From: Candidatus Omnitrophota bacterium
Lineage (GTDB): Bacteria; Omnitrophota; Gorgyraeia; Gygaellales; JAQTUX01
DNA: 64,000 nt
Assembly: GCA_028707125.1 (NCBI GenBank)
Contig: JAQTUX010000001.1
Location: forward strand, 269,639 to 333,638
Direction of reading: 5' to 3'
Numbering within the stretch: position 1 is the first letter of the stretch; the number at the start of each line of letters is the position of its first letter. Positions 6,933 to 64,000 of this stretch are shown here, in pieces. The notes under the pieces were generated by a model. It worked only from the letters and a program-made list of their open reading frames with translations. It had not been told where the DNA came from and made no database searches. A program made the translations under genes and the position numbers.

Positions 6933-7709
6933 ATGTCCGGTTATTTTCTGAGGCTAATCAAGGCGCGGCATATTCTGCGAAGCATGGTCCTGAAGAACTT
7001 GAAGGACAAATATGTCGGCTCAACACTGGGTATCTTCTGGGCGGTGATAAACCCCCTGTTGATCATGTCGGCCGTATCCTTTGTTTTCACTCAGGTGATG
7101 CAAACCCCGATACGGCGCTACCCGCTGCTGGTATTAAGCGCCTACCTTCCCTGGAATTTCTTCGTTAACTCCGCCACTGAAAGCGCCGCCTGCATAAGGC
7201 AGAATCAAGGCATACTCTCTCAATACACCATCCCCCGCGAGGCCATACCCGTATCAGTCGCGCTCGCCGATTTCCTGAACTTTTTATTCGGATTCGCGGC
7301 GATGCTGCCGATATTCATCTTCATGAACAGGGGGGCCGCGGGATGCCTGTGGCTGCTGCCTTTGGTAATGGCCCTGCATCTGGCATTCACCGTCGGGATC
7401 TCCTTATTGTTCAGCATCATCAATATATATTTCAGGGATTTTTCCCAGCTCCTGGGAGTGGGAATGCTGTTCTGGTTCTGGGTCACGCCGGTCTTCTACA
7501 CCCTGGAGATGATGCCTGCCGGCCTTCGCGGGGCATTCCTGGCCAACCCCGCCACATGCTATACGGTTATTTACAGGGAATTATTATATAACGGCCGCTG
7601 CGGCGGCATATCCATGTGGGTATTGGCCGTTATCTTCGCTTTGGCGAGTTTGGCGGGTGGATACATCTTATTTGCCGCCAAAGAAAAGGATATCCTCAAG
7701 CATATTTAG
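6933..7709 (+). CDS. wzm: ABC-2 type polysaccharide/polyol-phosphate export permease (Wzm/TagG-like)
   Basis: 258 aa with ~6 hydrophobic segments. The N-terminal LKNLKDKYVGSTLGIFWAVINPLL motif is typical of ABC-2 permeases. It sits immediately upstream of the cognate ATPase. Confidence 0.85.
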   Translation: MSGYFLRLIKARHILRSMVLKNLKDKYVGSTLGIFWAVINPLLIMSAVSFVFTQVMQTPIRRYPLLVLSAYLPWNFFVNSATESAACIRQNQGILSQYTIPREAIPVSVALADFLNFLFGFAAMLPIFIFMNRGAAGCLWLLPLVMALHLAFTVGISLLFSIINIYFRDFSQLLGVGMLFWFWVTPVFYTLEMMPAGLRGAFLANPATCYTVIYRELLYNGRCGGISMWVLAVIFALASLAGGYILFAAKEKDILKHI

Positions 7710-10421
7710 ATGATAACGCTGGAAGACGTTTGGCTGAAATACAGGATAGCGTTCAAGGAAGGCGCGAGGGCCGTTTGCGAGGATTTCTGGGCGCTTAAGG
7801 GCATAGACCTGAATGTCGGCAAGGGAGAGTGTTTCGCGGTCATCGGAGAGAACGGCTCAGGCAAGACCACGCTCCTGAGGGTGATCAGCGGCATGCTAAT
7901 GCCTGACAAGGGCAGGGTGCGCCTGGGAGGAAGGGTCGCCGGGCTTATGGAGATACAGGCCGGTTTCCATCCTGAACTGACCGGCAGGGAGAATATCTAC
8001 AATATCTCGGCGCTTTCAGGCCTGAGCGCCGATGAGACAGGCGCCTGTTACGCGGACATGGTTGAGTTTGCCGCCATCGGCAGGTTCATCAACGCCCCGG
8101 TAAAGACATACTCCCAGGGCATGCTTGTGCGCCTTGCCTTTGCCATAGCCATACACGCGCGCACCGACATATTGCTGGTTGACGACATATTCGCGGTAGG
8201 CGATATTTATGCCCGGCGCAAGTGCATTAATAAGATGTTTGAGCTGAAGGATAAGGGCCTGACCATTATTTTTGTTTCTCATGACCTGGATATTGCCAGG
8301 CGGCTGTGTAAAAGAGGCGTGCTGCTCAGGGAAGGCAGGGTTATCAGGGCCGGTTCAATAGACGGACTCGTCAGTTATTATCTTGAGACGGTAGGCAATA
8401 AGGAAGGTATAGCCCTGCTGCAAAAAGGGCGGCTGGCAATTATTTTTAATAACGGCAAGCTGATCATCAGGTGGAACGACTCCGCTCTTACCAAGGGCGC
8501 GGCCGGGCATACGGTGATGAGCTCTTCGGGCAGGACATATCAGTCAGATACCGCCTCCTGGATTATCCGGCAGCCGGCGGCAGCCGATGAGATCGTTGCC
8601 GTAGGCAGGTGGCCGGATATGCCGGCTGAGCTTATCTGGAAGATACGCTGCCGCGGCGAAAAGGAATTCAGCTGGGATGTAACTCTGCAGGCGCGCGCAC
8701 AGGCCCGGATAGAGGATTACACGGCCAGATTGATCCTGACCGACGAATACGAGGGCTGGTTTACATCGCAGGAGGAATACGTTTTTCCGGAGGCGTTCCT
8801 GCATGAGAACGAATGGCAGAGCCGCCGGATAGACGATCATCTTAACTGGCTGATAGGGTTAAAGACGGGAGCCGATAGCGGCGAAGGCCTGCCAACGCTT
8901 GTTTTAGACAGCTCAGGCGCGGATAAACAGGGCGCCTGCCAGATCGGCAATACCGGCATTGAGGCCTCTGCCAGAGGTATTCAGTTCAATTACGTTAATC
9001 CGGAACCAGAGCATGCCGCGGGCAGCTATAAGTTTTTTTCAACCGGCGTGAAGTTATTTGAGGAGCGGGACAGGCAGGATTTTGAATGTTATATGGCGCG
9101 GGCAAGGCAGGCCGGCAGGCGCAGGATCATCAGCCGCGGCCCGCTCGCCCTGTGTTGCGGGCAGCGCAAAATAGAGATTTTCCTGCGGGATGCGCTTTTA
9201 AGCAGCGGCGCGGGGCTGGATACGAAATTCATCTGGCAGGGCCGTACCTACAGCGCCGCCGGAGGTAACTGGTCCGTAGAAAAAGAAGGAGATAATTATC
9301 TTGTAGTTAATATCTTTTGGGGGCCCGAAGCGCCTTTTTTCCAGGTATGGAGAATGGAACTGCGGGATGAGTCCGCCATTTTCTGGCAGGCGGATATGGA
9401 AATAAGAGATGGGCTGGAGATCAGGAACAGGCAGGTTGAGCTTTTTCTCAGCGGCCGATATGACAGGTGGTTTACGCCTTCGGAAAACGGCGACTTTGGG
9501 GCAGTGGAAAAAAAAGGCAACACAGTCATACTAAGTAAATACATAAACGATTTTTCCGGCGTAGAACAGTCCTGCCTTATGCCGGCGGTTACCTTCGCCA
9601 ATCAAGACGGCCGCGCCAGAGTGTCGTATATTTCCCGGGGCCAGGACAAGGAATTAAATACGAAGCTGCATTATCTGGAGATAGATCCCGCCGCTGACGC
9701 GGCGCTTGAAGCAGGCAGGCACGCCTTTTTTAAGGGGGCCATAAGGATAGCGCCCAGGCAGGGACAAAAAGGCGTTGACGCGGTTGTCAATAATAACGGC
9801 GCGGCCGCGGCGATAAATTTTAACGGCGTTTCTCTGGATTTCAGGCACGGCAGGATGCGTCTTTTCTATGAAGGCGTTGAATTGACAAAAGGGCTGGGCC
9901 TTTACTCTGCGGTTTTGCATGAAGGCAACTGGCATGATTCTTCGCAGGGACTATGGAAGGTCGAGGCCTCGGACAGGGAAAGGTTCGTCGCCGTGGGCCG
10001 CTGGCCGTGGCTGCCTGTCAGGCAGGAATGGGAAGTAACGCTATTGGATGGCCGCGATATCATCTGGCGCATAACCAGGGATACCCGGGACGGCTTTGAT
10101 CCCGACAAGGAGCAGGTTAACCTGATGCTGTCGGATAATTACCGGGAGTGGTTTGTCCGGGAAAGGGCGCGGGGAAGGTTTCCCGAAGAGTTTGCCGAGC
10201 ATACCCGCGGCGGGTTCTGGGAGCGGTTATGGTCGGCGGCAGCGCAGTCGCCGGTCGGCGCCAAAGGGCCTGGGCTGCCGTCTGTCCTCCTGGACTGTTC
10301 AGAGAGCCCGGTTCCCGGCCGCCTGTGCATTGAGAACACGGACGCGTTATTCAAGGCCAGGGTCCTGCAGTGCGAATCGGCGCAGCAAAAACATTTTAGC
10401 GGAAAGATAAAGATATGCTGA
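7710..10421 (+). CDS. wzt: ABC exporter ATP-binding protein (Wzt/TagH-like) with a ~670-aa C-terminal extension made of three copies of an unassigned module
   Basis: Walker A GENGSGKTT, signature-like YSQGMLVRLAFA, Walker B ILLVDDIFAVGD, H-loop VSHD within aa 1-230. The ATG abuts the stop of the permease gene. The extension (nt ~8400-10418) has three ~200-aa repeats at ~8415-9075, ~9125-9760 and ~9805-10418. Confidence 0.9.
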   Translation: MITLEDVWLKYRIAFKEGARAVCEDFWALKGIDLNVGKGECFAVIGENGSGKTTLLRVISGMLMPDKGRVRLGGRVAGLMEIQAGFHPELTGRENIYNISALSGLSADETGACYADMVEFAAIGRFINAPVKTYSQGMLVRLAFAIAIHARTDILLVDDIFAVGDIYARRKCINKMFELKDKGLTIIFVSHDLDIARRLCKRGVLLREGRVIRAGSIDGLVSYYLETVGNKEGIALLQKGRLAIIFNNGKLIIRWNDSALTKGAAGHTVMSSSGRTYQSDTASWIIRQPAAADEIVAVGRWPDMPAELIWKIRCRGEKEFSWDVTLQARAQARIEDYTARLILTDEYEGWFTSQEEYVFPEAFLHENEWQSRRIDDHLNWLIGLKTGADSGEGLPTLVLDSSGADKQGACQIGNTGIEASARGIQFNYVNPEPEHAAGSYKFFSTGVKLFEERDRQDFECYMARARQAGRRRIISRGPLALCCGQRKIEIFLRDALLSSGAGLDTKFIWQGRTYSAAGGNWSVEKEGDNYLVVNIFWGPEAPFFQVWRMELRDESAIFWQADMEIRDGLEIRNRQVELFLSGRYDRWFTPSENGDFGAVEKKGNTVILSKYINDFSGVEQSCLMPAVTFANQDGRARVSYISRGQDKELNTKLHYLEIDPAADAALEAGRHAFFKGAIRIAPRQGQKGVDAVVNNNGAAAAINFNGVSLDFRHGRMRLFYEGVELTKGLGLYSAVLHEGNWHDSSQGLWKVEASDRERFVAVGRWPWLPVRQEWEVTLLDGRDIIWRITRDTRDGFDPDKEQVNLMLSDNYREWFVRERARGRFPEEFAEHTRGGFWERLWSAAAQSPVGAKGPGLPSVLLDCSESPVPGRLCIENTDALFKARVLQCESAQQKHFSGKIKIC

Positions 10422-13400
10422 AGGGCCTTTTATTTAATAACAGGAACAGGCGCGCGATAGAACGCGCCGGCATAAAAATAGATATTGATGAAGAGCGCCG
10501 CTTCAGGATCTACCATAACGGCAGCGAGCTCAGCAAGCTGCAGGGCATGCGCGTCTGTTTGTTTTCAGAGGGCAGATGGCACTATTTTCCCGCCAAAGAC
10601 AGTATCTTGAAGATAAGCAGGCCCGATGAAACCAGTTTTAGTTTGCGGCTTTACAATAGAACGCTGCCTGTTGTCCTGCATTGGGGAATGGAGCTGGGTG
10701 AGGGCAGCCGGTTGAAATGGAGCGTGGAATTAGAGCTAAAGGGGCCCATACGGCTGGATGCCGTGAAGGCCGTAGTGCTCCTCAGCCGTTCCTATAAAAG
10801 CTGGTTCTCTTATTCCGGCGCTAAAGAGGGCCTGTTCGCTGATAGCGCCGGAGAATTCCGGCAGGAGATCGGTATTGCCGATTCTGATTTTTTAAGCATT
10901 GGCGCGGACAGGCCGGAAATTGCCACGCTGCTGTTAAGGGCGGTTGATTCGCCTTTAAATGTTTCTTTGTGTAACACGGATGATCTGTCTTCCTCGCGTG
11001 AAGTTGATCTCTGCTGCAACGGGCAGAAGGAATTTTATGCCCCCGGCAGGCACTCTTGTTTTCAGGCGGTTATTGAACTCTGCGGGGATAAGTCCGCAGT
11101 AGAAAATATCATTCAGGATGTAAAAGGCAGAAAGAGGCGCGAAGAAGAAGAGGCGCTGCGTAAAAAGGAAGAGGAGCGCCTGGCGGAAGAAGAACAGCGC
11201 CGGCTAGAGGAAGAACGCCTGCGCCAGGAGGAACAAAGGCGCCTGGAAGAAGAGCGCCGAAAACAGGAAGAGCTCAAGCGCCTGGAAGAAGAGCGCCTGA
11301 GAATTGAGCGCGCGCGGGACCGGCAGCGGCGCACGCTTGAGGCGGGTGATTTCAGGATTTATTTTGACTACAATAACCGTTTCCATTTCTACCACAGGAA
11401 TGAGGAGTTTACCAAGGCGCATGGCCTGCATACGGGTATATTTTCAGAGGGCCGCTGGTATGGTTCGGCGGATTCAGAGGCCGCTATAGAGAATAGTGAG
11501 CCGGGTAGATTAAGGATCAATTTCAGGCACAGACATCTGCCCGTTATTCAATCCTGGGACCTGCGGTTAGATTCCGCGGGAGTAATCAGGTGGAGCGTTG
11601 ATATGCGGCTTGAGCAGCCGTTAAGGATAGAGCGCAGGAACGCCTGCCTGTTTTTGTCCCGCGCCTATGACAGGTGGCTTGCGCCTCCGGACGCGGGGGC
11701 GTTCCCCGCGGCATTCGGCCTGCAATGGCAGATGGCCAGCCCTTCGGAGAGCAGGCCGGGCTTTATAGGGCTGACGTCCGGGATGAAGCAGCTGCCGGGC
11801 ATAACATTAAAGGGCTCCGAAGACGGCGGCCGCCTGGCTGTTCATAACGCGGATATGGATGTCTCATCCCGCGTCCTTGAGGAGCGTTTTGAAGAGCGCG
11901 TAGAGTTTTACAAGGCAGGCGATTACTCTTTCTCGCGGGCGGTCATCCGGCTTTATAATGATAACGCGGCCATCGAGGGCGCGTTCAAAGAGGCGGAAGA
12001 AAAAGAGAACGCGCTCAGAGAGTTGCGCAAAGAGCGGCTGAGGCGCGCCGCCGGGCTAAGGCAGGGGAGAAAAGAATTTGAGGGGCTGCGCCTGCGCCCC
12101 GCGGCCTCGCGCGTCGTTATTTACGGCGATTCCCAGGGCCTGCACGATAAGATCAGCGGCGAGGCAGGCGGTTTTAACAGGGCCGTAGCGTGCATTAAGG
12201 CAGAAAGCGGCACAGCCGCGGTAGGTATCTCACGGTTTAATTTCTTCAAGATCCATGAGGTCGTCCAGTTCATCTCTACTTTGAGGAACGCGCGGATCGA
12301 TACGCGCCCTGTCTGCCTGCCGCTGTTTCCGGCAAGCGGTATTTACTCCAGTTTTCTTAATTACATAAAGGAGATCAAATCTCTCGTCGCAGGAAAGGGC
12401 ATCGAACTTTTCTTAAAAGACGTTGATCTGCTCAAACTCCTGCAGGCTGTGTCTTCGCAGTCCAATAGAGATAACGAGAGGGACCTGCTGCGGCTTCTGG
12501 GGCTGATAGCCGAGCATCCCTTTATCGGGCCGCAGACGCTGGTCCTCGACACAACGCATAAATGCAATACAAACTGCGCCCATTGCTGGATACACAACCC
12601 CCGCAGCAAGACGCCCCCCGCCGTGCTCGAATCAAAGATGGACGACCGCCTGTACAGGAAGATCATTGACGACGCGGCAGCCATTTTGAGCGACGAGGTC
12701 ATAATACAGGGCGACGGAGAGCCGCTTCTGGACGACCGCTTTATCGAGATGGCGCGTTACGCCAGGGACAAGGGGTTAAAGGTCCTGTTCTTTACCAACG
12801 GCATACTCCTGGATGAGGCGACGGCTAAATGCCTGATAGACCTGGAGGTCAATGAGATATTCTGCAGCCTGCCCGCCGGGACCGACCTGACCTACAGCTG
12901 GATAAATTCGCGGCAGTCAAAAGACACCTTCCACAGGATCGTCGGCAATCTGAAAAACCTGATCTCCCTGAGGAACGGCTCGGGCAGGCCCCTGCCGCTT
13001 TTGCAGATGACCCACGTGATACACAATATGAATTGCCATGAGATCGAGCAGATGTCCGCTGTTGACGCGGACATAGGCGCGGACAGGGCACGCTTCTACC
13101 TGGCCCGCCTTGACGAGAACATCGCGCATTTAAAGATACTATCTTCACAGGTAGAGGCGCTAAAGGCATCCCTGCGGAAGGCCGCCGCGTTGCTTAAAGA
13201 AAGCAAAATAGACCTGCAGGACAATATTTTTTTCCAGCTGGACAATTATCAGCCGGAGACCGGTTACTGGTCGCAGGGCCGTTTTCTTGAAACGGGCTGC
13301 CCGGTGGGGTGGTTTTTCGCGCTGATATTGGCTGGAGGAGAATTGAGCATGTGCTGCCATATGCGGGTGGTCGGGCGCCTGGGGGAAAGATCGCTGAGGG

Positions 13401-13588
13401 AGGCGTGGAATTCCCGGGAATACAACGATTACAGGGTCAAGGCCAAACATATGCGGGACAATATGGACGCGCGTTTCTCAAACGGCGTCAAGCTTTACGA
13501 TGATTTCTGCAATCATTGCGATACGCATCAGGTGATCTTAAGGATAAACGGCCTGCTGGAGCGATACGGGCTGAAGAAATTCTTATAA
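10415..13588 (+). CDS. Multidomain radical-SAM protein: two copies of the Wzt-extension module, an E/R coiled coil, a linker domain and a C-terminal rSAM/SPASM-like catalytic domain
   Basis: CX3CX2C at 12563-12586 (HKCNTNCAHCW), GDGEPLL, and C-terminal Cys motifs GELSMCC...CNHCDTH. The modules lie at ~10472-11085 and ~11336-11965. The gene overlaps the wzt stop by 7 nt. Confidence 0.8.
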   Translation: MLKGLLFNNRNRRAIERAGIKIDIDEERRFRIYHNGSELSKLQGMRVCLFSEGRWHYFPAKDSILKISRPDETSFSLRLYNRTLPVVLHWGMELGEGSRLKWSVELELKGPIRLDAVKAVVLLSRSYKSWFSYSGAKEGLFADSAGEFRQEIGIADSDFLSIGADRPEIATLLLRAVDSPLNVSLCNTDDLSSSREVDLCCNGQKEFYAPGRHSCFQAVIELCGDKSAVENIIQDVKGRKRREEEEALRKKEEERLAEEEQRRLEEERLRQEEQRRLEEERRKQEELKRLEEERLRIERARDRQRRTLEAGDFRIYFDYNNRFHFYHRNEEFTKAHGLHTGIFSEGRWYGSADSEAAIENSEPGRLRINFRHRHLPVIQSWDLRLDSAGVIRWSVDMRLEQPLRIERRNACLFLSRAYDRWLAPPDAGAFPAAFGLQWQMASPSESRPGFIGLTSGMKQLPGITLKGSEDGGRLAVHNADMDVSSRVLEERFEERVEFYKAGDYSFSRAVIRLYNDNAAIEGAFKEAEEKENALRELRKERLRRAAGLRQGRKEFEGLRLRPAASRVVIYGDSQGLHDKISGEAGGFNRAVACIKAESGTAAVGISRFNFFKIHEVVQFISTLRNARIDTRPVCLPLFPASGIYSSFLNYIKEIKSLVAGKGIELFLKDVDLLKLLQAVSSQSNRDNERDLLRLLGLIAEHPFIGPQTLVLDTTHKCNTNCAHCWIHNPRSKTPPAVLESKMDDRLYRKIIDDAAAILSDEVIIQGDGEPLLDDRFIEMARYARDKGLKVLFFTNGILLDEATAKCLIDLEVNEIFCSLPAGTDLTYSWINSRQSKDTFHRIVGNLKNLISLRNGSGRPLPLLQMTHVIHNMNCHEIEQMSAVDADIGADRARFYLARLDENIAHLKILSSQVEALKASLRKAAALLKESKIDLQDNIFFQLDNYQPETGYWSQGRFLETGCPVGWFFALILAGGELSMCCHMRVVGRLGERSLREAWNSREYNDYRVKAKHMRDNMDARFSNGVKLYDDFCNHCDTHQVILRINGLLERYGLKKFL
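11125..11335 (+). other. Highly charged E/R/K/L heptad-like coiled-coil segment (~70 aa)
   Basis: RKRREEEEALRKKEEERLAEEEQRRLEEERLRQEEQRRLEEERRKQEELKRLEEERLRIERARDRQRR, with internal repeats of (E)EQRRLEEER(L/R)R. Confidence 0.8.
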
Positions 13589-13593
13589 AAGAT

Positions 13594-15798
13594 ATGAAGA
13601 TATCATTGGTAAATCTGCCCTGGAGGAGTTTTGGCAGGGAGGGGGTGAGGGCTGGTTCCCGCTGGCCGCATTTGAAGGCCCGCTCGGAGAAAGAATATCT
13701 GCCTTTCCCCTTTTTTCTCGCCTACGCGGCGGCGCTGCTTAAAAAGAACGGATTTAACGCGCGGCTCATTGACGCCATCGCCAGCGGCCTGTCTTACAGG
13801 CGGTTTTCGCGCCGGATGCGCTCCAGCCGCCCCGACATCCTGGTCTGCGAGACGTCCACGGTGACCCTCAAGCATGACTTGCGGGTCCTGAAGGGCCTGG
13901 GGAGCAAGGCGGAGATCATCCTTTGCGGCCCGGATGTCAATATCCGCCGGCCGGATTTTCTCAGGGAGAACGGATTTATAAAATATGTGCTGTCCGGAGA
14001 ATATGAATTTACGCTCCTTGAACTGCTGCAGCATCTTGATGAGGGCCGCGGCCTTGATGAGGTAAAGGGGATCATATACCGCTCTAACGGCGGCGTGAAG
14101 ATCAATCCCGCGCGGCCCCTGGTTGACCTGGACCGCCTGCCCTGGCCTCTGCGCGAAGGCCTGCCGATGTCGCGTTACAACGATGCCCCGGGAGACATAC
14201 CCATACCGTCGGTGCAGATGATGGCCTCACGCGGCTGCCCGTTTCGCTGCAAGTTCTGCCTCTGGCCGCAGGTGATGTATCAGGGCAGCCATTACAGGGC
14301 CAGGAGCGTCGTGGACGTCGTTGATGAAATGGAATACCTGGTCAGGAATTCGGGATACAGGTCGGTCTATTTTGACGACGATACCTTTAACTGCGGCAAA
14401 GAAAGGATGCTCGGCCTCTGCGCTGAGATCAAGAAGAGGGGCCTGAATATCTTCTGGGCGATAATGGCAAGGGCCGACCTGATGGATGAGGAGATCCTGG
14501 TGAATATGAAAGAGGCGGGGTTGTTTGCCGTCAAATACGGCGTGGAATCCGCCGATAACTCCCTGTTGGACAATATCAATAAGGGTATGTCGCTTGAAAA
14601 AACAGAGGCCGTCATCAAGATGACCAGGGCGCTGGGCATCAAGACCCACCTGACCTTTACCCTGGGCCTTCCGGGAGAGACCAGGCAGACCATAAAAAAG
14701 ACGGTTGATTTCGCCTTAAAGGCCGATCCGGAATCGCTTCAGTTTTCCCTGGCTACGCCGTTTCCGGGAACGGAGTTCTACAGGGAGATGAAGGAGAACG
14801 GCCGGATAATCTCCGCTGATTGGGCAAGATACGATGGAAGCCGCAGCAGCGCGCTCGCCTATGACGATCTCTCCGCGGGCGAGCTTGAGCGCGCCATGAG
14901 GTCGGCTTACAGGCGGTGGGCAATGCACCGTTTGAAAAGGGCCCGTTTTGACCGATTGGGGCTAAAGGCGTATTGCCGCTATTCCCTTGTCAATTCAATA
15001 AATAGCAACGGAATTGTCATGACCGCTTATAAGGTTTCGCGGTTTGCTTTCAGGTACGCGCTTATGCACGTGAGGGAGGCGTTGGTGTCCTCGCCCCGTA
15101 AGATTGAAAACATCGCGCGGGAAAAGGGGTTGAAACTGGGAAGGATGTCCCTGGTCCCGGACGGCCGCGGCCTGAGTTTGTTCTGGGGCGGCCTCAAGTT
15201 GACCCGCGGACGCGGATTTTACAGCTTTCTAAATTTTGAAGGCGCGGATAACGGCAGCGACGGCGCGCTTAAATGGGACACGCAGAGGCCGGACGCGGGC
15301 AGCATTATATTGAGGCGCCTGTATGACGGCGCCGGCATTGAGGAGATATGGAAGATAACCGCGCTGGATGAAAAGCAGATCGGCTGGGACGTGGATATTG
15401 AAATAAAAAAAGAGACGGGTGTGCGGCAGGAAGATATCGGCCTGGCGCTTACGCGCAAATACCGCAAGTGGATAGAAGAATGGGGCGAGGGCAGGTTTCC
15501 CCCTTTGAACGATTACCGCGAAGTTGAGCTCAGGAACGCGCGCAGCGCCGTTGTCGGCGTAAGGGGCAGGAGGGCATTGAGGAATACTCTGCCCACGGTC
15601 CTGCTTGACCTGTCCGCCGGCAATAACGGTTTTCTCCCGTCGGTAGGGAACTCGGCAGAAGGGCATCACGGCCGCCTGCTCGGGGTCAGGCTCGCGCGAG
15701 GGGCCCGCGTCCGCAGATACGCCGCCGGAAGGCACAGGTTGTTGTCGGCCAGGATAAAGATAGTGGAAGAGGATTTCGCGAAGGGCGGGCGAAGATGA
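13594..15798 (+). CDS. B12-binding-domain (class B-like) radical-SAM protein with one C-terminal copy of the Wzt-extension module
   Basis: The ATG at 13594 (MKISLVNLPW) is preferred to the track start at 13516, which overlaps the upstream gene. Rossmann-like N-terminal domain (DILVCETST...IILCGPD...VLSGEYE), ASRGCPFRCKFCLWP, and a module at ~15150-15790 (LSLFWGGLKLTRGRGFY...LPTVLLDLS). Confidence 0.85.
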   Translation: MKISLVNLPWRSFGREGVRAGSRWPHLKARSEKEYLPFPFFLAYAAALLKKNGFNARLIDAIASGLSYRRFSRRMRSSRPDILVCETSTVTLKHDLRVLKGLGSKAEIILCGPDVNIRRPDFLRENGFIKYVLSGEYEFTLLELLQHLDEGRGLDEVKGIIYRSNGGVKINPARPLVDLDRLPWPLREGLPMSRYNDAPGDIPIPSVQMMASRGCPFRCKFCLWPQVMYQGSHYRARSVVDVVDEMEYLVRNSGYRSVYFDDDTFNCGKERMLGLCAEIKKRGLNIFWAIMARADLMDEEILVNMKEAGLFAVKYGVESADNSLLDNINKGMSLEKTEAVIKMTRALGIKTHLTFTLGLPGETRQTIKKTVDFALKADPESLQFSLATPFPGTEFYREMKENGRIISADWARYDGSRSSALAYDDLSAGELERAMRSAYRRWAMHRLKRARFDRLGLKAYCRYSLVNSINSNGIVMTAYKVSRFAFRYALMHVREALVSSPRKIENIAREKGLKLGRMSLVPDGRGLSLFWGGLKLTRGRGFYSFLNFEGADNGSDGALKWDTQRPDAGSIILRRLYDGAGIEEIWKITALDEKQIGWDVDIEIKKETGVRQEDIGLALTRKYRKWIEEWGEGRFPPLNDYREVELRNARSAVVGVRGRRALRNTLPTVLLDLSAGNNGFLPSVGNSAEGHHGRLLGVRLARGARVRRYAAGRHRLLSARIKIVEEDFAKGGRR

Positions 15799-42825: not shown

Positions 42826-42874
42826 CAGGGACAGCGGCCGCTATAGAATAAAATATACGTAGCAGAAAGGAAGG

Positions 42875-42982
42875 ATGCGTTTTATACTGACGGTATTATT
42901 AACGATCGCGGCTTTGGGCATGGATTGTTTCCTGTGGCTGCTTAAGAGGATCAAAAAAATATGCGTTTTCCCCGGGGGGTAA
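42875..42982 (+). CDS. Candidate 35-aa hydrophobic micro-protein (not in the ORF track)
   Basis: ATG at 42875 preceded by gaaaggaagg. Translation is MRFILTVLLTIAALGMDCFLWLLKRIKKICVFPGG, and the TAA at 42980-42982 ends 1 nt before the GT4 start. It has one predicted TM helix followed by a basic patch. This is the only sizeable intergenic gap inside the operon. Confidence 0.3.
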   Translation: MRFILTVLLTIAALGMDCFLWLLKRIKKICVFPGG

Positions 42983-42983
42983 G

Positions 42984-44177: not shown

Positions 44178-44179
44178 CA

Positions 44180-49492: not shown

Positions 49493-49494
49493 CG

Positions 49495-50121: not shown

Positions 50122-50134
50122 TAATCAACACATT

Positions 50135-53067: not shown

Positions 53068-53085
53068 GGGCCCGACAGGACTAAC

Positions 53086-54105: not shown

Positions 54106-54153
54106 AAGTCCTTATGCTTCAGTTATCCGTAACCGGCAGCGTTGTTTGATTAA

Positions 54154-55731: not shown

Positions 55732-57464
55732 GGGCCAATTCAAATAACCTGATACTTGCCTCCGCGCTGATATTGGTCGTTATCGTCCGTTTTCAAGGTT
55801 TGGGCAGCGGGCTTCCTTTTCAGTTTGTCAGGGGCGAACCCATAGGCTTTACGGCAGCGCGCGTGCGGGGGCTGGATATAAAGTCAATGCGGGGCCGGTA
55901 TCCCAATTTCCTGCCGATAAGCATAAAGATCGCCGAAGGCGTATTGAGCTATCTAAAGCTGGATAAGCCGATCCTCGCCGCTTATGGACTTTCGCCCCGG
56001 GAAGAAAAAACGTCATTTTTCCTTTCTCAGATAATCTGCCGTTTTTATTCGGCTTTGTTCGGGATAATGGGGATCATCGCTGTATTTCTATTTTCTAAAC
56101 GGTATTTGTCATACACCGTGGGGCTCATTGCCGCGTTTCTGCTTTGCGTTCACCCGCTCCACTTTTTTTACTCCCATTTTGACACGCCCCATATCACGCA
56201 GTCATTTTTTATAATCCTGACCGCCTTTGCCGGATATAACGCGCTGCGAAGAATGAGTGTTGTTAACTTTCTGGCACTCGGCCTGGTTTCCGGCCTGACG
56301 GCTTCAACGCTGCAAAACGGCCTTCTGACATTACCCTTTTTCTGCTGGTTGTTTTTTTATTCTCAGAAGGGCAGGGCCTTTTCCGGGAAGGATTGGCGCC
56401 TTCTTTTTGCAGCGCTGGCGGCCTTCGGCTTATGCGCCCGCATGGTGGGTTATTCATCCGCGTCCACAGGGGGAGATTCGCTTCGTTTCGGTTTTCTCAC
56501 GAGCCCGGATATGCCGGCAATCGTCTTGAATAACGCGCACGAGATATTTTTAAGGGAGTTTGGATTCAAAGGGTTCCGGTTTATGGGATACATCTTGATG
56601 CGCACAAGCCCGGTTATGCTGCTGTTCGCCGTTTTCGGCGGCGTTATGATATTGCTTGACAAAAAAAGGCTTAAGTCGTATCTGCCTTTATTTGTGCTTT
56701 ATGGTCTGTTCATATTCGCTCACGGGACATATAATATGACCACAGAGCGTTATTTTACCGAACCGCTGCCGCTTATGGCGTTGTTGGCGGCGGAGACGGT
56801 CATATTTTTAAAAGAGCGGATAGTCCAGCGTTTCCCCATGAGGCGCGGATGGCTGGCGGCGTCTGTGCTGGTGGTTTTTATCGCTGCCCCCATGTGCCTT
56901 AGGGATGCCGGCATAAATAATTTCCTGAAAAGCAAGAGCACATATACGTTGCTATACGAATGGATGGTGGATCAACGACGGTCATTCGAAGGCAAAAGGG
57001 TGCTTTTTCTGACGAATGTCGGCATGCAGAATGAATCCCTGTTCTTTAAGGCGGCAGACATTATTTTTACCCACAGTAATGTATTTTCCGGAGACAGGCA
57101 AGGTCTGCTTAAGGCGGCTGCCGGGCAAAAGATAGATTATATTATTACTTCAGAATCGTCGTGTTCCTTGCAGCTGCGTGAGGGGGCCTTTCAGCTTCTG
57201 CCGGAGTTTCCTGGATTCGCCAAAATGATAAAGACATTTAACCCCTTAAGGAAGGCGCCTGTTTCAGCCGTGCCCATTCTTGAGGAATGCAGGCAGCTCG
57301 CCTATGAGGAGCGGCTTTACGGCGTGACATTGAAGCAGGATTATTTGTGCTCGGCGATGTTTTTTAGCGCCCTGAGCTATAATATGCACCTGTATTACAG
57401 GCACGCGGAGCGCCCCGGGCCGATGCTTGCCGTGTACAGGGTAACAGCGGAAGATAATGATTAA
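55728..57464 (+). CDS. Polytopic membrane protein, possible GT-C (ArnT/PMT-like) glycosyltransferase
   Basis: ~11 hydrophobic segments followed by a ~200-aa soluble C-terminal domain. The N-terminal loop IVRFQGLGSGLPFQFVRGEPIGF loosely resembles the first-loop acidic motif of GT39/GT83 enzymes. Weak call. Confidence 0.35.
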   Translation: MRANSNNLILASALILVVIVRFQGLGSGLPFQFVRGEPIGFTAARVRGLDIKSMRGRYPNFLPISIKIAEGVLSYLKLDKPILAAYGLSPREEKTSFFLSQIICRFYSALFGIMGIIAVFLFSKRYLSYTVGLIAAFLLCVHPLHFFYSHFDTPHITQSFFIILTAFAGYNALRRMSVVNFLALGLVSGLTASTLQNGLLTLPFFCWLFFYSQKGRAFSGKDWRLLFAALAAFGLCARMVGYSSASTGGDSLRFGFLTSPDMPAIVLNNAHEIFLREFGFKGFRFMGYILMRTSPVMLLFAVFGGVMILLDKKRLKSYLPLFVLYGLFIFAHGTYNMTTERYFTEPLPLMALLAAETVIFLKERIVQRFPMRRGWLAASVLVVFIAAPMCLRDAGINNFLKSKSTYTLLYEWMVDQRRSFEGKRVLFLTNVGMQNESLFFKAADIIFTHSNVFSGDRQGLLKAAAGQKIDYIITSESSCSLQLREGAFQLLPEFPGFAKMIKTFNPLRKAPVSAVPILEECRQLAYEERLYGVTLKQDYLCSAMFFSALSYNMHLYYRHAERPGPMLAVYRVTAEDND

Positions 57465-58497
57465 GATCACAGCGCCGTTTAACAGCAGGGATGAAGTGAA
57501 GATAATGGCCGGATACGGGGCGGATGAGCTTTACTGCGGCTATCTTGCGCCTGAGTGGGCCAGGCATTATTCAAACCTTGAATTTGAAAGAAAAGGGGGG
57601 GTGGAAAGCAATTTTACGGATTTGGACGAACTTAATAAATCGGTTGAGCTGGCGCACCGCTATAATATCCCTGTTTTTCTCGCCTTGAACGGGCTTTACG
57701 TAAGACATCAATATCCGCTCCTTTTGAAGATTATCGATAAACTCAGGCAGATTGATTTTGACGCCTTTATAGTCGCGGATATGGGCCTGATATTAACGCT
57801 GGTTGAGCGCGATATCGGCAAAAAGCTCCACATATCCACGGGAGGCACGGTATTCAATACGGACGCGGTGGGTTTCTACCGCAGGTTCTCTCCGGAGCGC
57901 GTCATTTTAGACCGTCAGCTTACAATCCGGCAGATCAGCGGACTGGTCAAGAGAAACCCGGGCGTGGATTTTGAGGCCTTCATTTTCAGTACGATCTGCG
58001 TTCACATAGACGGGTTTTGTACATTTATGCATTCATACGGCGCAAACAGGGAAGAAAGTATCGCGCACTGCTCAGGGCTGGATCCAAAGCTGTATTTCGC
58101 CACAACATACGATCCCGAGGCTTTTGAGGATGCCTGCTCTTTGCGCTACGCCGTTAAAGTTTATGAACAAGGTAGGGCGGCCAGCCGCAAAAATAATGTA
58201 ATGCCCGCTTTTTATAAACGTCAGATGGACGGTATGGCCTGCGGGATATGCGCGATGTACGACCTGAATAAGGCGGGGGTAAGGGCGGTCAAGGTGGTGG
58301 GAAGGCAGGTTGGCCGTATAAGACGGTTGAAGAGCGTGGAATTCGTCGCGCGGGCGCGCGCCTTATTGGATGCGGATCCCGCTATTAAACGGAAAGAATT
58401 TATTCGGCGCTGTAAAGATATGTATCGCGAAGTTTGGGAATATAAAGGCCGGTGCAAAGGGAACAACTGCTATCATCCTTCTTTTGCGCGCGATTAA
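57457..58497 (+). CDS. Peptidase-U32-family protein (UbiU/TrhP/RlhA-like)
   Basis: ITAPFNSRDEVKIMAGYGADELYCGY, LDELNKSVELAHRYNIPVFLALNG, FDAFIVADMGL, and Cys cluster candidates CVHIDGFCTF...HCSG...MACGICAMY. Confidence 0.7.
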   Translation: MIKITAPFNSRDEVKIMAGYGADELYCGYLAPEWARHYSNLEFERKGGVESNFTDLDELNKSVELAHRYNIPVFLALNGLYVRHQYPLLLKIIDKLRQIDFDAFIVADMGLILTLVERDIGKKLHISTGGTVFNTDAVGFYRRFSPERVILDRQLTIRQISGLVKRNPGVDFEAFIFSTICVHIDGFCTFMHSYGANREESIAHCSGLDPKLYFATTYDPEAFEDACSLRYAVKVYEQGRAASRKNNVMPAFYKRQMDGMACGICAMYDLNKAGVRAVKVVGRQVGRIRRLKSVEFVARARALLDADPAIKRKEFIRRCKDMYREVWEYKGRCKGNNCYHPSFARD

Positions 58498-58515
58498 AAC
58501 AAAGGGAACATCCGG

Positions 58516-59382
58516 ATGGAAAAAGCGGTTTATATAGCGGATAAAAGGCGGCTGAAGAGTTTGAAGAAGGGCGCGGCCACAAGGATCTATTTCGGGGCTG
58601 AGTTCTGCGAGCGGCTTATCCCTTCCATTGGGGAGTGCAGGGAGGTTATTTCCCGGGCGCGCGATAAAGGCATGGATTTCTCGCTGGTCACTCCTTATGT
58701 GACCGACACAGGTATCAGCCGCCTAAGGTGTTTATTCGATCTTATGTCCTGCCTGGATGTGCCCGTTGAGGTGATAGTGAATGATTGGGGTGTTTTGGGC
58801 CGGTTGCGTAATGAATATACCGGACTTGTGCCTGTTCTGGGGCGTCTTTTGACCAAGCAGAAGAGGGGGCCGCGCATAAGGCGGCTGCTGGAAAGGCGCC
58901 TTCCTTCAAAGATCATCCGGCCGAAAGAGCCGTCGCGGCAGGGCGCAATGATTATTGTCGCCGAGAAACTTCCTCCGGATACCGATTTTTATTACCGCGG
59001 TTCCAGTGTCACGAGCGTGCCCGTAATCCATAAATTTCTTAAAGAAAATAACGTATACAGGATCGAGATTGATAACCTTCTGCAGGGTATTTATCTGGAG
59101 ATGGAGAATTCAGGCATTTCGGTGTCCGTCTATACGCCCTACGCGTATATATCGACTACGATGTTCTGCCCTACTGTCGGCTGCGAACGGAAGAAAAAGC
59201 CGTTTTTAAGGGTGCGCCCCTGCGTGAAAGAATGCCGCAGGTACACATTCCGCCTGAGGCATAAAAGCATGCCGGAAGATATCATTTTAAAAGGGAACAC
59301 GCAATTTTACAAAAACGGCCTCGGCTCGATCAGAAAATTAGAGCAGGCAGGTATAGATCGTATAGTGTATCAGCAATTGTAA
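58516..59382 (+). CDS. Second, shorter U32-like protein (UbiV-like partner candidate)
   Basis: GAATRIYFGAEFCERLIP, ARDKGMDFSLVTPYVTD, VEVIVNDWGVL, C-terminal Cys MFCPTVGCE...RPCVKEC. 288 aa, directly downstream of the 346-aa U32 gene. Confidence 0.5.
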   Translation: MEKAVYIADKRRLKSLKKGAATRIYFGAEFCERLIPSIGECREVISRARDKGMDFSLVTPYVTDTGISRLRCLFDLMSCLDVPVEVIVNDWGVLGRLRNEYTGLVPVLGRLLTKQKRGPRIRRLLERRLPSKIIRPKEPSRQGAMIIVAEKLPPDTDFYYRGSSVTSVPVIHKFLKENNVYRIEIDNLLQGIYLEMENSGISVSVYTPYAYISTTMFCPTVGCERKKKPFLRVRPCVKECRRYTFRLRHKSMPEDIILKGNTQFYKNGLGSIRKLEQAGIDRIVYQQL

Positions 59383-59397
59383 TTTAAGGGTGGGGTT

Positions 59398-60798
59398 GTG
59401 ATCGTGACACGGATCAAACATAAGTTTTTCCTGATGTTCGGTGCTGTTTTAGTTTTCCTGCTCATGCTTGAGGTCGTATTTCGCATAGCGGGATTCATTC
59501 TGCTGTCGTTTCAGGAGAGGGATAACCCGGTTTTGCTGGATAAACAGGAGGAGCTCCGTATTGTGTGCCTGGGAGAGTCCACCACCGCCTTCGGCGGCAG
59601 GGATTCTTATCCTTATCAATTGCAGGAGGTCCTGAGCGCCAGGATCCCCGGGGTTAAATTCAAGGTCATCAACAAAGGCGTTGCCGGAGTTGATACGGCG
59701 TTTTTCCTTTCCAAACTTGATGAGAATTTGGCCAGATATAAGCCCGATATGGTCATTACGATGTTGGGGACCAACCAGAATGATAATTCAATGAAATTTG
59801 AGGAAACACTGAGATTCAGGATAAAGCTGCTGGTGTATGAAATCAAGGTCTATAAGATGGTACGCCTGCTTTTTGACAGGATGAGGGTTAAATCCCGCAA
59901 CCGCATCTACGATAGAATGTATATGCCGCCGAATGAGGCGGGCGCCGGAGTGGCCCCTGATAGCGACCGCGCATACACGGAGATGGGGTTTATGGAGAAA
60001 GAGCAGGGCCGCCGCATCAGGGCGCTGGGACATTTCAAAAAGGCGATCCGGATGAATCCTTCAAACAGCTGGGCGCGTGTCGGCCTGGCCATGGTTTATA
60101 AAGAGATGGGCAGATTGGATGAGGCAATAGGCGCGCTCAGGGCCGCTATAGAAATAAACCCTTTGAGCGAGGCAGGCAACAGGGAGCTGGCGTGGTGCCT
60201 AAAGAAACAAAAGAGGTATGATGAGGCGGGATCCATATATCAAAAGATCATTAAGGATATAAAACCGCAAAACGGCTTCCTGTATATGGAGGCGGGATTA
60301 TTTTATAAAGAGATGGGCAGGTACCCGGAGGCGATTTCCGCCTTTGAGCGCGGTTTTGAGCTTAACCCTGAGACGGAAAACTTCTACGGCGACCTCGCCT
60401 TTTGTTATGAGCAGGCCGGCAAAGACGACCTGGCAAAGAGGTGCTATAGTAAATTTAATAAGTCGCTTTACACAACTTATAACCCCGCCACGATCTACAA
60501 TTACAGGCAATTGCGTGACAGGATCCTGGCAAAAGGTATTTTGCTGGTTTGTATGCAATATCCGGTGCGTCCCGTGGAGCCGTTAAGGCGCATCCTTGAG
60601 GGGCGTGAAGTGGTCATCTTCGTTGATAACGAGCGGGTCTTCAAGATGGCGGTAGCCAGGGACGGCTATGAGGAGTATTTTTATGATAATTTCCGCGGCG
60701 ATTTCGGCCATTGTACCCGCAAGGGCAACCGGCTGCTTGCCGAAAACCTTGCCGGTGTGCTGGAAAGGGAATGTTTCCGGGAAAGGACGAAGATATGA
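59398..60798 (+). CDS. Membrane-anchored SGNH-TPR paralog 4 (GES variant, GTG start)
   Basis: Anchor FFLMFGAVLVFLLMLEVVF. RIVCLGESTTAFGG, MVITMLGTNQND, RGDFGHCTRKGNRLLA. Clear TPR repeats in the insert (AYTEMGFMEKEQGRRIRALGHFKKAIRMNPSNSWARVGLAMVYKEMGRLDEAIGALRAAIEINP). Confidence 0.7.
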   Translation: MIVTRIKHKFFLMFGAVLVFLLMLEVVFRIAGFILLSFQERDNPVLLDKQEELRIVCLGESTTAFGGRDSYPYQLQEVLSARIPGVKFKVINKGVAGVDTAFFLSKLDENLARYKPDMVITMLGTNQNDNSMKFEETLRFRIKLLVYEIKVYKMVRLLFDRMRVKSRNRIYDRMYMPPNEAGAGVAPDSDRAYTEMGFMEKEQGRRIRALGHFKKAIRMNPSNSWARVGLAMVYKEMGRLDEAIGALRAAIEINPLSEAGNRELAWCLKKQKRYDEAGSIYQKIIKDIKPQNGFLYMEAGLFYKEMGRYPEAISAFERGFELNPETENFYGDLAFCYEQAGKDDLAKRCYSKFNKSLYTTYNPATIYNYRQLRDRILAKGILLVCMQYPVRPVEPLRRILEGREVVIFVDNERVFKMAVARDGYEEYFYDNFRGDFGHCTRKGNRLLAENLAGVLERECFRERTKI

Positions 60799-62890: not shown

Positions 62891-64000
62891 AGATGAAGCC
62901 CACATTCACGTTTATTTCCCTTTTCAATCAGCATGCCATCAGTTTAAGGCCGCTTTTGTCTGTCCTGGAAAACGCGGGATTCAGCACGAACGTTGTTTTC
63001 TTCAAGCGCAGGGAAGACCAGGGGCGTTTCACGCCTAAAGAGCTCGCCCTTCTTACGGCCGTGATTGATATGCTTAAGACCGATTACGTTATGATCTCGC
63101 TCGTCTCCGGGGCTTATCAGGCCGCCAAAGCAATATCCTTAAAGCTGCGGAAGGAAAAAAAGAGGCGGTTTATCGTCTGGGGCGGCGTGCATCCTACCCT
63201 GGCCCCTGAAGATTGCATTAGGTATGCCGATGCCGTGTGCATAGGGGAAGGTGAGGGGGCTGTCCTGGATCTGGCAAGGGAGTTTGCCACGGGCCCGTTA
63301 CGCAGAAAGACGATAAGAAACTTATGGGTCAGGGGCGGCGGAGACGGGGTCAAATGTAAGTTGCGCCCGCTTTGTGATCTAAACGCCATTCCGGCCTATA
63401 AACCCAGGGATAATATATACCTGATAAGCAACGACCGCATAGGCAGATATAGCGATGCCAGCGAACTGGTTATTATTTCAAGAGGATGCCCTTTTGAATG
63501 CGCCTTTTGCTGCAATGCGGCCGTCAGGGGTTTATACGGAAGGCCGAAGGGTTTTCACAGGGCGCTTACCGTTGAAAACGCGATCAAGGGCCTTTTAGAG
63601 ATGAAGTCCCGGGGGGTAAGGCGCCTTGTCTTCGTTGACCCGATATGGCCCTATAATGACATTGATATTATGAAGGAGTTTAAAAGGGATTATAAAAAGC
63701 ATGTCGGTCTCCCTTTTTCCTGCGCCGTGTACCCTACCATGGTAAACGAACATCTGGTGGAGGGGCTGGAGCAATGCGGCTGTAAGAGTTTATTTATGGG
63801 GATACAGAGCCCTTCGGAAGATGTGCGGCAGCTGTTCCGGCGGCCCTATTCCGATGACGCGGTCGTAAATGCCGCGCGCATTATCGATAAAAATAACATC
63901 ATCGGGATATACGATTTCATAGATAAGAACATATTTGAAGGGCCGGAGCATCTTTTGAGAAAGAAGCTGCTTATTGAGCGGCTGCCCGCCGGCTCCGTTA
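62887..64000 (+). CDS. B12-binding-domain radical-SAM protein, 3' end cut by the window (not in the ORF track)
   Basis: The ATG at 62887 overlaps the upstream TGA (ATGA). My translation MKMKPTFTFISLFNQHAISLRPLLSVLENAGF...FIVWGGVHPTLAPEDCIRYADAVCIGEGEGAVLDLA...VIISRGCPFECAFCCN...LFMGIQSPS stays open to nt 64000. Confidence 0.8.
   Translation, partial: MKMKPTFTFISLFNQHAISLRPLLSVLENAGFSTNVVFFKRREDQGRFTPKELALLTAVIDMLKTDYVMISLVSGAYQAAKAISLKLRKEKKRRFIVWGGVHPTLAPEDCIRYADAVCIGEGEGAVLDLAREFATGPLRRKTIRNLWVRGGGDGVKCKLRPLCDLNAIPAYKPRDNIYLISNDRIGRYSDASELVIISRGCPFECAFCCNAAVRGLYGRPKGFHRALTVENAIKGLLEMKSRGVRRLVFVDPIWPYNDIDIMKEFKRDYKKHVGLPFSCAVYPTMVNEHLVEGLEQCGCKSLFMGIQSPSEDVRQLFRRPYSDDAVVNAARIIDKNNIIGIYDFIDKNIFEGPEHLLRKKLLIERLPAGSV

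Follow-up and report, generated by a model that had tools for sequence, protein, structure and literature searches.

Radical SAM genes in a conserved and probably glycan-exporting locus of Omnitrophota

Here we analysed a 64,000-nt stretch of a Candidatus Omnitrophota genome (the window; GenBank assembly GCA_028707125.1, contig JAQTUX010000001.1, positions 269,639 to 333,638 of the forward strand), in which a long array of radical S-adenosylmethionine (rSAM) genes lies within a Wzm/Wzt-type export locus. Positions given below are those of the whole window, and a "g" followed by a number denotes the open reading frame (ORF) that starts there. All listed genes from 6933 to 64000 lie on the plus strand in a nearly gap-free chain, and 26 of 44 consecutive genes belong to the rSAM superfamily. 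Such a proportion, together with a gene order that is repeated in other genomes, is not explained by chance. On balance we regard it as probably the most expanded example known of an Omnitrophota-specific type of locus that makes a lipid-linked surface glycan by an ABC transporter-dependent route. This assignment is based on sequence comparison, and we infer from it the product and every reaction type discussed here.

A motif scan placed CX3CX2C in exactly 26 plus-strand ORFs between 10415 and the window end, the last of which (62887-64000) is cut by that end. In Pfam all 26 score above the PF04055 (Radical_SAM) gathering threshold of 29.5 bits, at 39.4-83.4 bits, and the count given in a preliminary description of this DNA is thus borne out by motif and family model alike. 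Its subdivision also holds for the most part. Thirteen proteins of ~330-390 aa are SPASM-type paralogs that are mutually 35-45% identical in pairwise comparison, three share the CxxxCxxCW form of the motif (10415, 15795 and 39966), one is HemN/HemW-like (54154), and the pair 60711 and 61781, which are 29% identical to each other, forms a further subfamily. The six class-B-like proteins stand as a group, with a B12 domain secure only in 30564 and 62887, the two that exceed the PF02310 cutoff of 32.1 bits (39.9 and 46.7 bits, respectively). The score of 13516 is below it at 22.4 bits. PF02310 was not detected by Pfam in 28478, 34348 and 36383, which are class-B-like through NCBIfam similarity alone. 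The small rSAM at 52144 is present as described, while its "activase-like" label could not be confirmed. Searches with the NCBIfam rSAM subfamily models returned partial similarities only, and no curated membership.

The PF13186 (SPASM) cutoff of 21.5 bits is exceeded in 13 proteins, namely 10415, 15795 and 11 of the 13 SPASM paralogs. Two others fall slightly under it (18166 at 19.0 bits and 39966 at 21.1 bits), and g37990 has no match. In an alignment of the 13 paralogs, CX3CX2C, GGE and three of five cysteines in the SPASM region are invariant, and the other two are present in at least 90%. With five conserved C-terminal cysteines as opposed to the canonical seven, the number of auxiliary clusters is uncertain.

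The array recurs well beyond this genome. When species-representative genomes were scanned with the 439-aa rSAM (15795..17114), 16 loci came up, nearly all from Omnitrophota metagenome-assembled genomes (MAGs), with orthologs 42-61% identical. Related contigs carry labels such as L002-L027 and L102; L022 is a Logan contig identical to window DNA (SRR22315508). Seven "full-type" loci keep the order of the window when their ORFs are mapped onto its proteins: Wzm, Wzt, the 1057-type rSAM, an HpnJ-like B12 rSAM, the 439-type rSAM, SPASM paralogs, a 496-aa B12-binding rSAM (B12-496), the 556-type rSAM and the GT4 glycosyltransferase GT4a. The 556-type enzyme is the last rSAM before GT4a in these loci, and orthologs of the 1057-type rSAM follow Wzt in L004, L006, L007, L012 and L015. 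One full-type locus holds 16 rSAM genes within 21 kb; in the window, 21 lie in the conserved array from 10415 to 41636. Position-specific orthologs are 56-78% identical (56-76% for paralogs 1 and 2, at 17114-19176), compared with 35-45% between paralogs, and CX3CX2C and GGE are kept in 42 of 42 orthologs. For example, paralog 27499 has 390 homologs at E <=1e-10, and the top named ones are nearly all from Omnitrophota at ~60% identity, which is higher than that of any paralog pair within the window. This conserved order, with orthologs more alike than paralogs, marks the rSAM array as an ancient, conserved module whose members are non-redundant.

"Reduced" loci retain three SPASM genes, the 1057-type rSAM, SGNH genes, a fusion protein of ~1400 aa, B12-496 and GT4a. 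B12-496 lies just upstream of GT4a in these loci and belongs, like the HpnJ-like g13516, to the minimal conserved core. The fusion joins HpnJ-like and 439-type enzymes and carries two copies of a domain described below, domain X (L008 7745-11974; L009 279-4430; L010 7781-11977); the same fusion is found in L013 (7784-11980) and L021 (7649-11980). That the two enzymes are fused argues that they work together. Glycos_transf_4, GT2, carbamoyltransferase and PMT_2 genes flank the reduced loci, the PMT_2 genes in L008 and L010.

A metagenome scan anchored on GT4a added 80 loci, with GT4a orthologs 47-63% identical. Of these, 49 have enough upstream sequence, and in 37 of them the gene immediately before GT4a is of the rSAM class; the smallest recurring unit is Wzm-Wzt-B12-B12-GT4. 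The gene that follows GT4a in the window, encoding a Wzy_C-TPR protein, also does so in L027. The constant partners of the rSAM array are a glycan exporter and glycosyltransferases (GTs). Linkage of the rSAM genes to Wzm/Wzt and GT4a is repeated in 16 loci from genomes and in dozens from metagenomes. Whether homologous clusters accompany peptide and lipid genes or glycan export had been set beforehand as the test of the glycan reading, and the outcome favours it. The giant 2016-aa fibre protein encoded upstream, put forward earlier as an alternative substrate, adjoins the array in none of the related loci and was rejected.

In some related loci, amine oxidase, NodU/CmcH-type carbamoyltransferase and SxtJ-like genes stand beside Wzm/Wzt (L004/L005 5655-9192; L010 1590-2897 and 15960-17504; L008 17722-19521), which the window does not have. 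Mixed loci of rSAM and GT genes may be more widespread. On L024 (JGI Ga0247426_1000380), at 938-20942, at least eight rSAM genes lie among GT2, GT4, GT28 and polysaccharide deacetylase genes, with one rSAM-SPASM protein fused to a sugar-type oxidoreductase of the GFO_IDH_MocA family.

The exporter resembles those of polysaccharides. The best solved relative of the Wzt-type ATPase (7710..10421, 903 aa, ABC_tran; nucleotide-binding domain at aa 1-225) is the O-antigen Wzt of Aquifex aeolicus (E 4e-61), with teichoic-acid TarH/TagH proteins and mycobacterial RfbE, a galactan exporter, next best and lipid ABCA proteins lower (E 1e-28). The Wzm-type ABC-2 permease (6933..7709, 258 aa, six hydrophobic segments, PF01061) is closest to A. 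aeolicus Wzm among solved structures (6oih_D/6m96_B, E 2e-23) and partially matches an NCBIfam galactan export permease. No peptide immunity or peptide export ABC-2 transporter is among the best exporter matches. PF02397, PF00535 (twice), PF00534 (twice) and PF04932 are all present in the locus, as in an ABC transporter-dependent pathway. In its Wzm/Wzt pair, initiating phosphoglycosyl transferase, cytoplasmic GTs and Wzy_C/WaaL-family protein, the locus is similar to the O-antigen pathways of A. aeolicus and the E. coli O9a type. The preliminary description had also argued that ABC-dependent polymers are completed in the cytoplasm; a review agrees, with the canonical O antigen finished in the cytosol and its modified terminus recognised by a C-terminal carbohydrate-binding domain (CBD) of Wzt (PMC9445017).

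As in canonical Wzt, the ATPase of this locus extends C-terminally where the CBD would lie. Here that position is occupied by tandem repeats of a mutarotase fold: the C-terminal 680 aa have no Pfam match and contain three repeats of ~200 aa (domain X, ~197 aa; nt 8409-9020, 9120-9704 and 9804-10406 by profile). The fold of domain X is a galactose-mutarotase-like β-sandwich. The same profile locates two N-terminal copies in g10415 (aa 12-210 and 305-501) and one C-terminal copy in g13516 (aa 536-735), and domain X is common to Wzt and three rSAM lineages. Across the window and the collected related sequences it finds 91 copies, always on Wzt (three to six), the 1057-type rSAM (two to three), the HpnJ-like rSAM (one), or the 439-type rSAM or its fusion. 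Domain X is rare, as 1.84 billion representative proteins include only 646 clusters that contain it. When 50 clusters were sampled across this spread, its partners were only ABC_tran (28), Radical_SAM with SPASM or B12 domains (5) and PMT/PMT_2 GT-C transferases (4-6). Judging from fold and architecture, the simplest reading is that the exporter and the tailoring enzymes would bind the same glycan. Some proteins of the domain X family (P0247-P0395) have eight to nine copies.

Combining these features, we propose the following route. The small phosphoglycosyl transferase (49495..50121) would prime polyprenyl phosphate, and the GT2 and GT4 enzymes would extend the chain on the cytoplasmic face. 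While still cytoplasmic, the chain would have its sugars remodelled by a fixed rSAM set, comprising the rSAM/SPASM enzyme with domain X, the HpnJ-like B12-type enzyme, the 439-aa SPASM enzyme and a second B12 enzyme, which in this genome may be joined by three TPR/B12-like enzymes and by the 13 SPASM paralogs, none of them redundant. Known enzymes (HpnJ, BtrN, DesII, AprD4, BlsE, GenK and AviX12) suggest by analogy the candidate reactions ring contraction or carbocycle formation, C-methylation, epimerisation, dehydrogenation, deoxygenation and decarboxylation. Domain X on Wzt and the core rSAMs would capture the substrate by recognising the same glycan. Wzm/Wzt would then export the finished chain, the Wzy_C-TPR protein would ligate it to an acceptor in the periplasm, and the GT-C enzyme may add a sugar. 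The four membrane-anchored SGNH-TPR proteins could add or remove acyl groups in the periplasm. Each has one N-terminal anchor preceded by positive residues, an N-in orientation in which the catalytic domains should face the periplasm, and this fits acyl editing after export. We speculate that the TPR arrays on the SGNH proteins, the Wzy_C protein and two rSAMs serve scaffolded complexes.

A stronger version of this proposal seems to us possible and rather doubtful. In it, a cytoplasmic radical-SAM "assembly line" of at least 12 non-redundant SPASM and B12 enzymes would act on the lipid-linked polysaccharide, recruited by the shared mutarotase-fold module and by TPR scaffolds. By forming carbocycles, C-methylating, epimerising and introducing C-C or ether cross-links, these enzymes would rewrite unactivated sugar C-H positions and give a surface glycopolymer with no described counterpart, and the repeats on the exporter would read the modification state as an export signal.

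The heavily radical-tailored glycan or glycolipid suggested in the preliminary description draws partial support from the exporter type, the conserved linkage to GTs, the shared domain X and the lack of a precursor or PqqD gene in the window. Several observations weigh against it. Against PDB sequences, a profile of the 13 paralogs gives matches at E 1e-19 to 1e-6 that range over three substrate classes, the closest solved relatives including SkfB and CteB (peptide), GDGT-MAS (lipid), and BlsE, DesII and BtrN (sugar). Such a mixture does not discriminate, and we discarded these matches as a guide to substrate class. None of 20 of the 26 window rSAMs, nor of five downstream ones, reaches a curated NCBIfam cutoff, so no reaction can be assigned. 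The window contains no nucleotide-sugar synthesis genes, and Pfam finds no match to PF14524, the canonical Wzt_C, in the Wzt protein. Since not every Wzt protein carries a CBD, the missing PF14524 does not exclude membership in the ABC-dependent pathway. The mutarotase fold is also found in YidC and a few other proteins that are not CAZymes, and we infer sugar binding by domain X at the level of the fold. Finally, a cassette with PqqD, a candidate precursor and a ScmC-like protein directly follows on the same strand, and a conserved 47-aa ORF heads the paralog array in six related loci; both are taken up below.

Characterised sugar-directed rSAMs (DesII, BlsE, BtrN, AprD4 and GenK) act on nucleoside diphosphate (NDP)-sugars or small glycosides. 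By this precedent the array could act on soluble nucleotide-sugars or other small precursors, giving unusual monosaccharides that ordinary GTs then polymerise. DesII and BlsE are among the closest solved relatives, and the window encodes just five GTs compared with at least 20 rSAMs. However, three core rSAM lineages carry the multi-copy domain of the exporter, and canonical Wzt recognises the finished polymer. Nucleotidyltransferase and NDP-sugar dehydratase or aminotransferase genes are likewise missing from the window, TPR arrays on rSAM, SGNH and Wzy_C proteins suggest membrane-proximal assembly, and HpnJ, to which g13516 is closest among named proteins, has a lipid-linked sugar as its proposed substrate. 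We consider action on soluble sugars unlikely.

The resemblance of g13516 to HpnJ also bears on whether the substrate might be a lipid. Against TIGR03471 (HpnJ), g13516 scores 272.3 bits (E 8e-81; cutoff 577.6), with ~420 of 472 model positions aligned, and by this comparison it is related to HpnJ and not a member of that family. The proposed role of HpnJ is hexosamine ring contraction of bacteriohopanetetrol glucosamine (PMC9204698), which makes it an enzyme of lipid-linked sugars and for g13516 offers an analogy only. A membrane lipid or glycolipid head group of hopanoid-, ether-lipid- or ladderane-like type, flipped by Wzm/Wzt, would agree with this similarity and with the lesser similarity of g13516 to ladderane-type and GDGT-type lipid rSAMs. 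Lipids are among the cargo of ABC-2/ABCA-type transporters, and the match list of the exporter has ABCA proteins further down. "Ladderane" calls of the antiSMASH type have also been reported in Omnitrophota MAGs (PMC9902471). Yet the exporter is far nearer Wzt (E 4e-61) than ABCA (E 1e-28), the conserved partners are a phosphoglycosyl transferase, GT2/GT4, Wzy_C, GT-C, carbamoyltransferase and SGNH acyl-esterase proteins, and genes for squalene/hopene cyclase, polyprenyl synthase, fatty acids or ether lipids are missing from the window and related loci. The window has no hopanoid genes, nor the lipid-synthesis genes expected if a membrane lipid, the other alternative substrate of the preliminary description, were modified. 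We judge a lipid substrate very improbable.

Enzymes of the rSAM/SPASM type are best known as peptide maturases, and the array could instead mature a ribosomal peptide or protein, either a product like the peptides made by ribosomes and modified after translation (RiPPs) or a cofactor-like product. The GTs would then glycosylate it or merely adjoin, and the ABC-2 transporter would export it. The closest solved relatives include SkfB and CteB, and the chain continues past 64000 into genes of this kind (L022 12458-21110, window coordinates 64238-72890). First comes a 93-aa PqqD protein (PF05402, 34 bits, above cutoff), followed by two PqqE/MftC/NirJ-like rSAM/SPASM genes and a 67-aa Cys-rich ORF (L022 14864-15067, MARKRKLKFDPQITKVKLHPEQAVLACQCWNTGLWGPNWQHSGSSSGCAFNGKYYVSFLTGAGATSS). 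A SPASM fragment behind a 298-bp gap and a second U32 and partner pair come next, and then a ScmC-like P-loop protein, a B12 rSAM resembling RiPP C-methyltransferases and a further rSAM. Window and downstream DNA together hold at least 31 rSAM genes in one chain. L023, another Omnitrophota contig, has SCM-like (SynChlorMet) cassettes with PqqD amid GT genes.

This downstream cassette does not appear to belong with the conserved core. No close ortholog of 61781 was found, identity to the best non-self homolog being only 39%, and the homologs it has are spread over diverse phyla; one of them, on L023, is found in rSAM::ScmC and PqqD cassettes beside a peptide-type ABC exporter, and another lies among GTs and rSAMs without PqqD. 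The rSAMs at 60711-64000 are probably the start of an adjoining, strain-specific SCM-like cassette, which is itself probably peptide-directed. On this count the earlier view that all 26 rSAMs serve the glycan probably does not extend to the last three, leaving 23 in the glycan-type part. According to Haft, an SCM cassette reportedly consists of ScmC, a PqqD homolog and ScmE/ScmF. The downstream genes are SCM-like at most: the ScmC assignment is a weak precomputed Pfam match on a 358-aa protein that is absent from a rescan at E <=0.1, and the ScmE/ScmF models give 45-99 bits against a cutoff of 400 for window and downstream rSAMs. The locus resembles multi-rSAM RiPP and SCM systems in its row of rSAM/SPASM genes and, beyond the window, in PqqD, two PqqE-like rSAMs, a Cys-rich ORF and a ScmC-like protein. 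Unlike them, it has a conserved core without PqqD, RiPP recognition element (RRE) or precursor, and its partners are Wzm/Wzt and GTs.

Within the core, the evidence for a peptide substrate centres on a basic, Trp-rich ORF of 47 aa (MAETxxQKF...GIDWRKFSR, 53-81% identical) that directly follows the 439-type rSAM in six full-type loci (L002 626-769; L004 19724-19867; ~11260-11420 in L006, L007, L012 and L015). The window lacks it along with the first of two 17114-like SPASM paralogs, and a joint loss of this sort looks like that of a functional pair. However, the window keeps 13 paralogs without the ORF, and in L016 (8999-9067) it is fused to the next enzyme, on which grounds we rejected it as a general substrate. 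It is conserved over its whole length and in its behaviour is closer to a small subunit than to a precursor, although it may be part of a peptide/maturase pair. A profile search found no PqqD in the window or in ~95 related loci. In g38798 CX3CX2C stands at residue 83, the listed ORF start being probably too early; in the other 12 paralogs it begins between residues 16 and 38, and a cluster motif this near the N-terminus leaves no room for an N-terminal RRE. No precursor peptide gene was found in the window, which offers no free space for one, the small ORFs in its two gaps of more than 20 bp being implausible. The exporter is of the Wzm/Wzt type rather than a peptide-exporter type, and the domain it shares with the rSAMs has a carbohydrate-associated fold that is otherwise fused to GT-C transferases. 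Peptide maturation by the array is accordingly a quite unlikely explanation in our view.

Returning to the glycan reading, ABC transporter-dependent glycan loci and individual sugar-directed rSAMs are both already known. In contrast to the canonical Wzm/Wzt pathway, Wzt_C is replaced in these loci by three to six tandem mutarotase-fold repeats, at least 20 rSAM genes stand between exporter and GTs, the repeat is fused to tailoring enzymes, and the ligase-like protein bears a TPR array. HpnJ, BtrN, DesII, AprD4, BlsE, GenK and AviX12 share the rSAM core, some with SPASM/twitch or B12 domains. Those are single sugar rSAMs, with one or two per pathway and small molecules as substrates, whereas here at least 20 distinct conserved ortholog groups are found in a polysaccharide-export locus. 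To our knowledge, radical SAM chemistry on carbohydrates has been reported only for single enzymes in small-molecule pathways. A search of open-access full-text literature returned no description of this array or of any rSAM-rich polysaccharide locus, the nearest being single rSAMs near wzt in Xanthomonas lipopolysaccharide clusters. Neither the number of rSAMs, nor the replacement of the Wzt CBD by mutarotase-fold repeats, nor the sharing of that module with tailoring enzymes is described there, and in a recent survey of Omnitrophota genomes radical SAM is mentioned solely for a Pfam domain within giant proteins.

At least 20 distinct radical enzymes in one conserved polysaccharide-export locus would imply an undescribed type of glycan tailoring. 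If correct, it would bring many new sugar-directed radical reactions and a new module for glycan recognition through which tailoring is coupled to export. As a phylum, the Omnitrophota are widespread and mostly uncultured; they are anaerobes, some of them host-dependent, and such a locus could help explain their cell-surface biology. The shared domain X provides a direct experimental handle, as its binding could reveal the substrate class before the product is isolated.

Gene by gene, the rSAM array begins behind Wzt with a 1057-aa rSAM/SPASM protein of the CxxxCxxCW type (10415..13588; PF04055 47.7 and PF13186 30.7 bits), whose rSAM core starts at aa 713. The HpnJ-related class-B-like rSAM follows (13516..15798; PF04055 83 bits), with a true start likely at 13594 (734 aa) according to the gene call on the identical Logan contig, and then the 439-aa CxxxCxxCW rSAM/SPASM (PF04055 72 and PF13186 40.3 bits). 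SPASM paralogs 1 and 2 (17114-18169 and 18166-19176) were assigned from Pfam and paralogy. They precede the first SGNH/GDSL hydrolase-TPR protein (19163..20449, PF13472), which has a single N-terminal membrane anchor. Paralogs 3-10 stand back to back over 20421..28494, with starts at 20421, 21418, 22481, 23463, 24452, 25488, 26512 and 27499 (PF04055 50-83 bits, PF13186).

Behind these lies a 720-aa protein that combines TPR families with a class-B-like rSAM (28478..30640; PF04055 62.6 bits). It shows partial NCBIfam matches to ApyD/PhpK-type B12 rSAMs and is 39-44% identical to 34348 and 36383. B12-496 (30564..32054; PF04055 56.9 bits), the second SGNH-TPR protein (32047..33357; PF13472 75.8 bits, N-terminal anchor) and paralog 11 (33323..34357) come next. 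Two further class-B-like rSAMs, one with TPRs (34348-36402; PF04055 59.6 bits) and one 46% identical to it (36383-37993; PF04055 59.2 bits), are followed by paralog 12 (37990-38991), in which alignment reveals a degenerate set of SPASM cysteines. Paralog 13 is listed at 38798-39961, with a real start probably near 38990; its 194-nt overlap with the preceding gene arises from the longest-ORF rule. The 556-aa CxxxCxxCW rSAM/SPASM (39966..41636; PF04055 52.1 bits) closes the conserved array. It is a paralog of 10415, 43% identical over 508 aa, and lacks domain X. The third SGNH-TPR protein (41614..42825), recognised by Pfam and a hydrophobic segment, separates it from GT4a.

The glycan assembly genes start with GT4a (42984..44177; PF13692/PF00534) and a protein of the Wzy_C O-antigen ligase/polymerase family with a C-terminal TPR array and 12 hydrophobic segments (44096..46561; PF04932 71 bits); like the PMT_2 protein below, it is polytopic. 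Two GT2 enzymes and a second GT4 enzyme follow (46568..49492; PF00535 twice, PF00534). The phosphoglycosyl transferase is of the small monotopic, polyprenyl-phosphate type (PF02397 202.6 bits), and TIGR03025 covers its catalytic domain with 240 bits. Next are a DUF362 protein (50135-51283, PF04015), a 325-aa protein with an N-terminal signal-like segment and no family match in Pfam or NCBIfam (51234-52211), the small rSAM (52144-53067; PF04055 39.8 bits), a HemK-like SAM methyltransferase (53086-54105, PF05175) and the HemN/HemW-like rSAM (54154-55731; PF04055 68.5 bits; TIGR00539 134 bits, below cutoff). A PMT_2 glycosyltransferase of the GT-C fold, predicted to depend on polyprenyl-phosphate sugars (55728..57464; PF13231 31.3 bits), precedes a U32-family, UbiU-like protein with a Cys-rich 288-aa partner (57457..59382; PF01136 96.8 bits). 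The fourth SGNH-TPR protein (59398..60798; Pfam, hydrophobic segment), the rSAM pair at 60711-61784 and 61781-62890 (PF04055) and a B12-binding rSAM (62887 to the end, 426 aa in full; PF04055, PF02310) complete the window.

This inventory agrees with the co-oriented chain of the preliminary description and with its non-rSAM genes (ABC2_membrane, ABC_tran, two GT4, two GT2, Bac_transf, Wzy_C with TPR and four GDSL with TPR). It adds the PMT_2 GT-C transferase, which brings the GTs to five (two GT4, two GT2 and one GT-C), the U32 protein and its Cys-rich partner, the DUF362 protein and the HemK-like methyltransferase. Only two intergenic gaps exceed 20 bp between 6933 and 64000, of 158 bp (42826-42983) and 48 bp (54106-54153). 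Seven minus-strand ORFs of at least 200 aa have no Pfam match and were ruled out as genes on that basis. A promoter and terminator scan gave results near the shuffled background and is uninformative on whether the chain is a single transcript.

The U32 pair occurs twice in the chain, at 57457-59382 and at L022 16121-18071, in each case with a Cys-rich partner of ~280 aa that has no Pfam match. As in UbiU/UbiV, a U32 protein with partial similarity to UbiU (g57457; NF047963, 100 bits) stands beside a Cys-rich partner. Unlike UbiU/UbiV, g57457 is far below the 440-bit cutoff, its partner has no U32 Pfam match and no ubiquinone genes are nearby. The two proteins may form an O2-independent hydroxylase pair, which would fit an anaerobic tailoring toolkit.

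A search with Rfam brought up neither a riboswitch nor any other RNA family, in the window as a whole or in the 277-bp leader that separates wzm from the gene before it. That gene (6257-6655) encodes a 132-aa "23S rRNA intervening sequence protein" (PF05635), a four-helix bundle, and lies between wzm and the gene for the giant protein. The latter, at 129-6179, encodes 2016 aa, and its C-terminal domain, Peptidase_S74 (endosialidase-chaperone), is of the kind seen in tail-fibre-like proteins.

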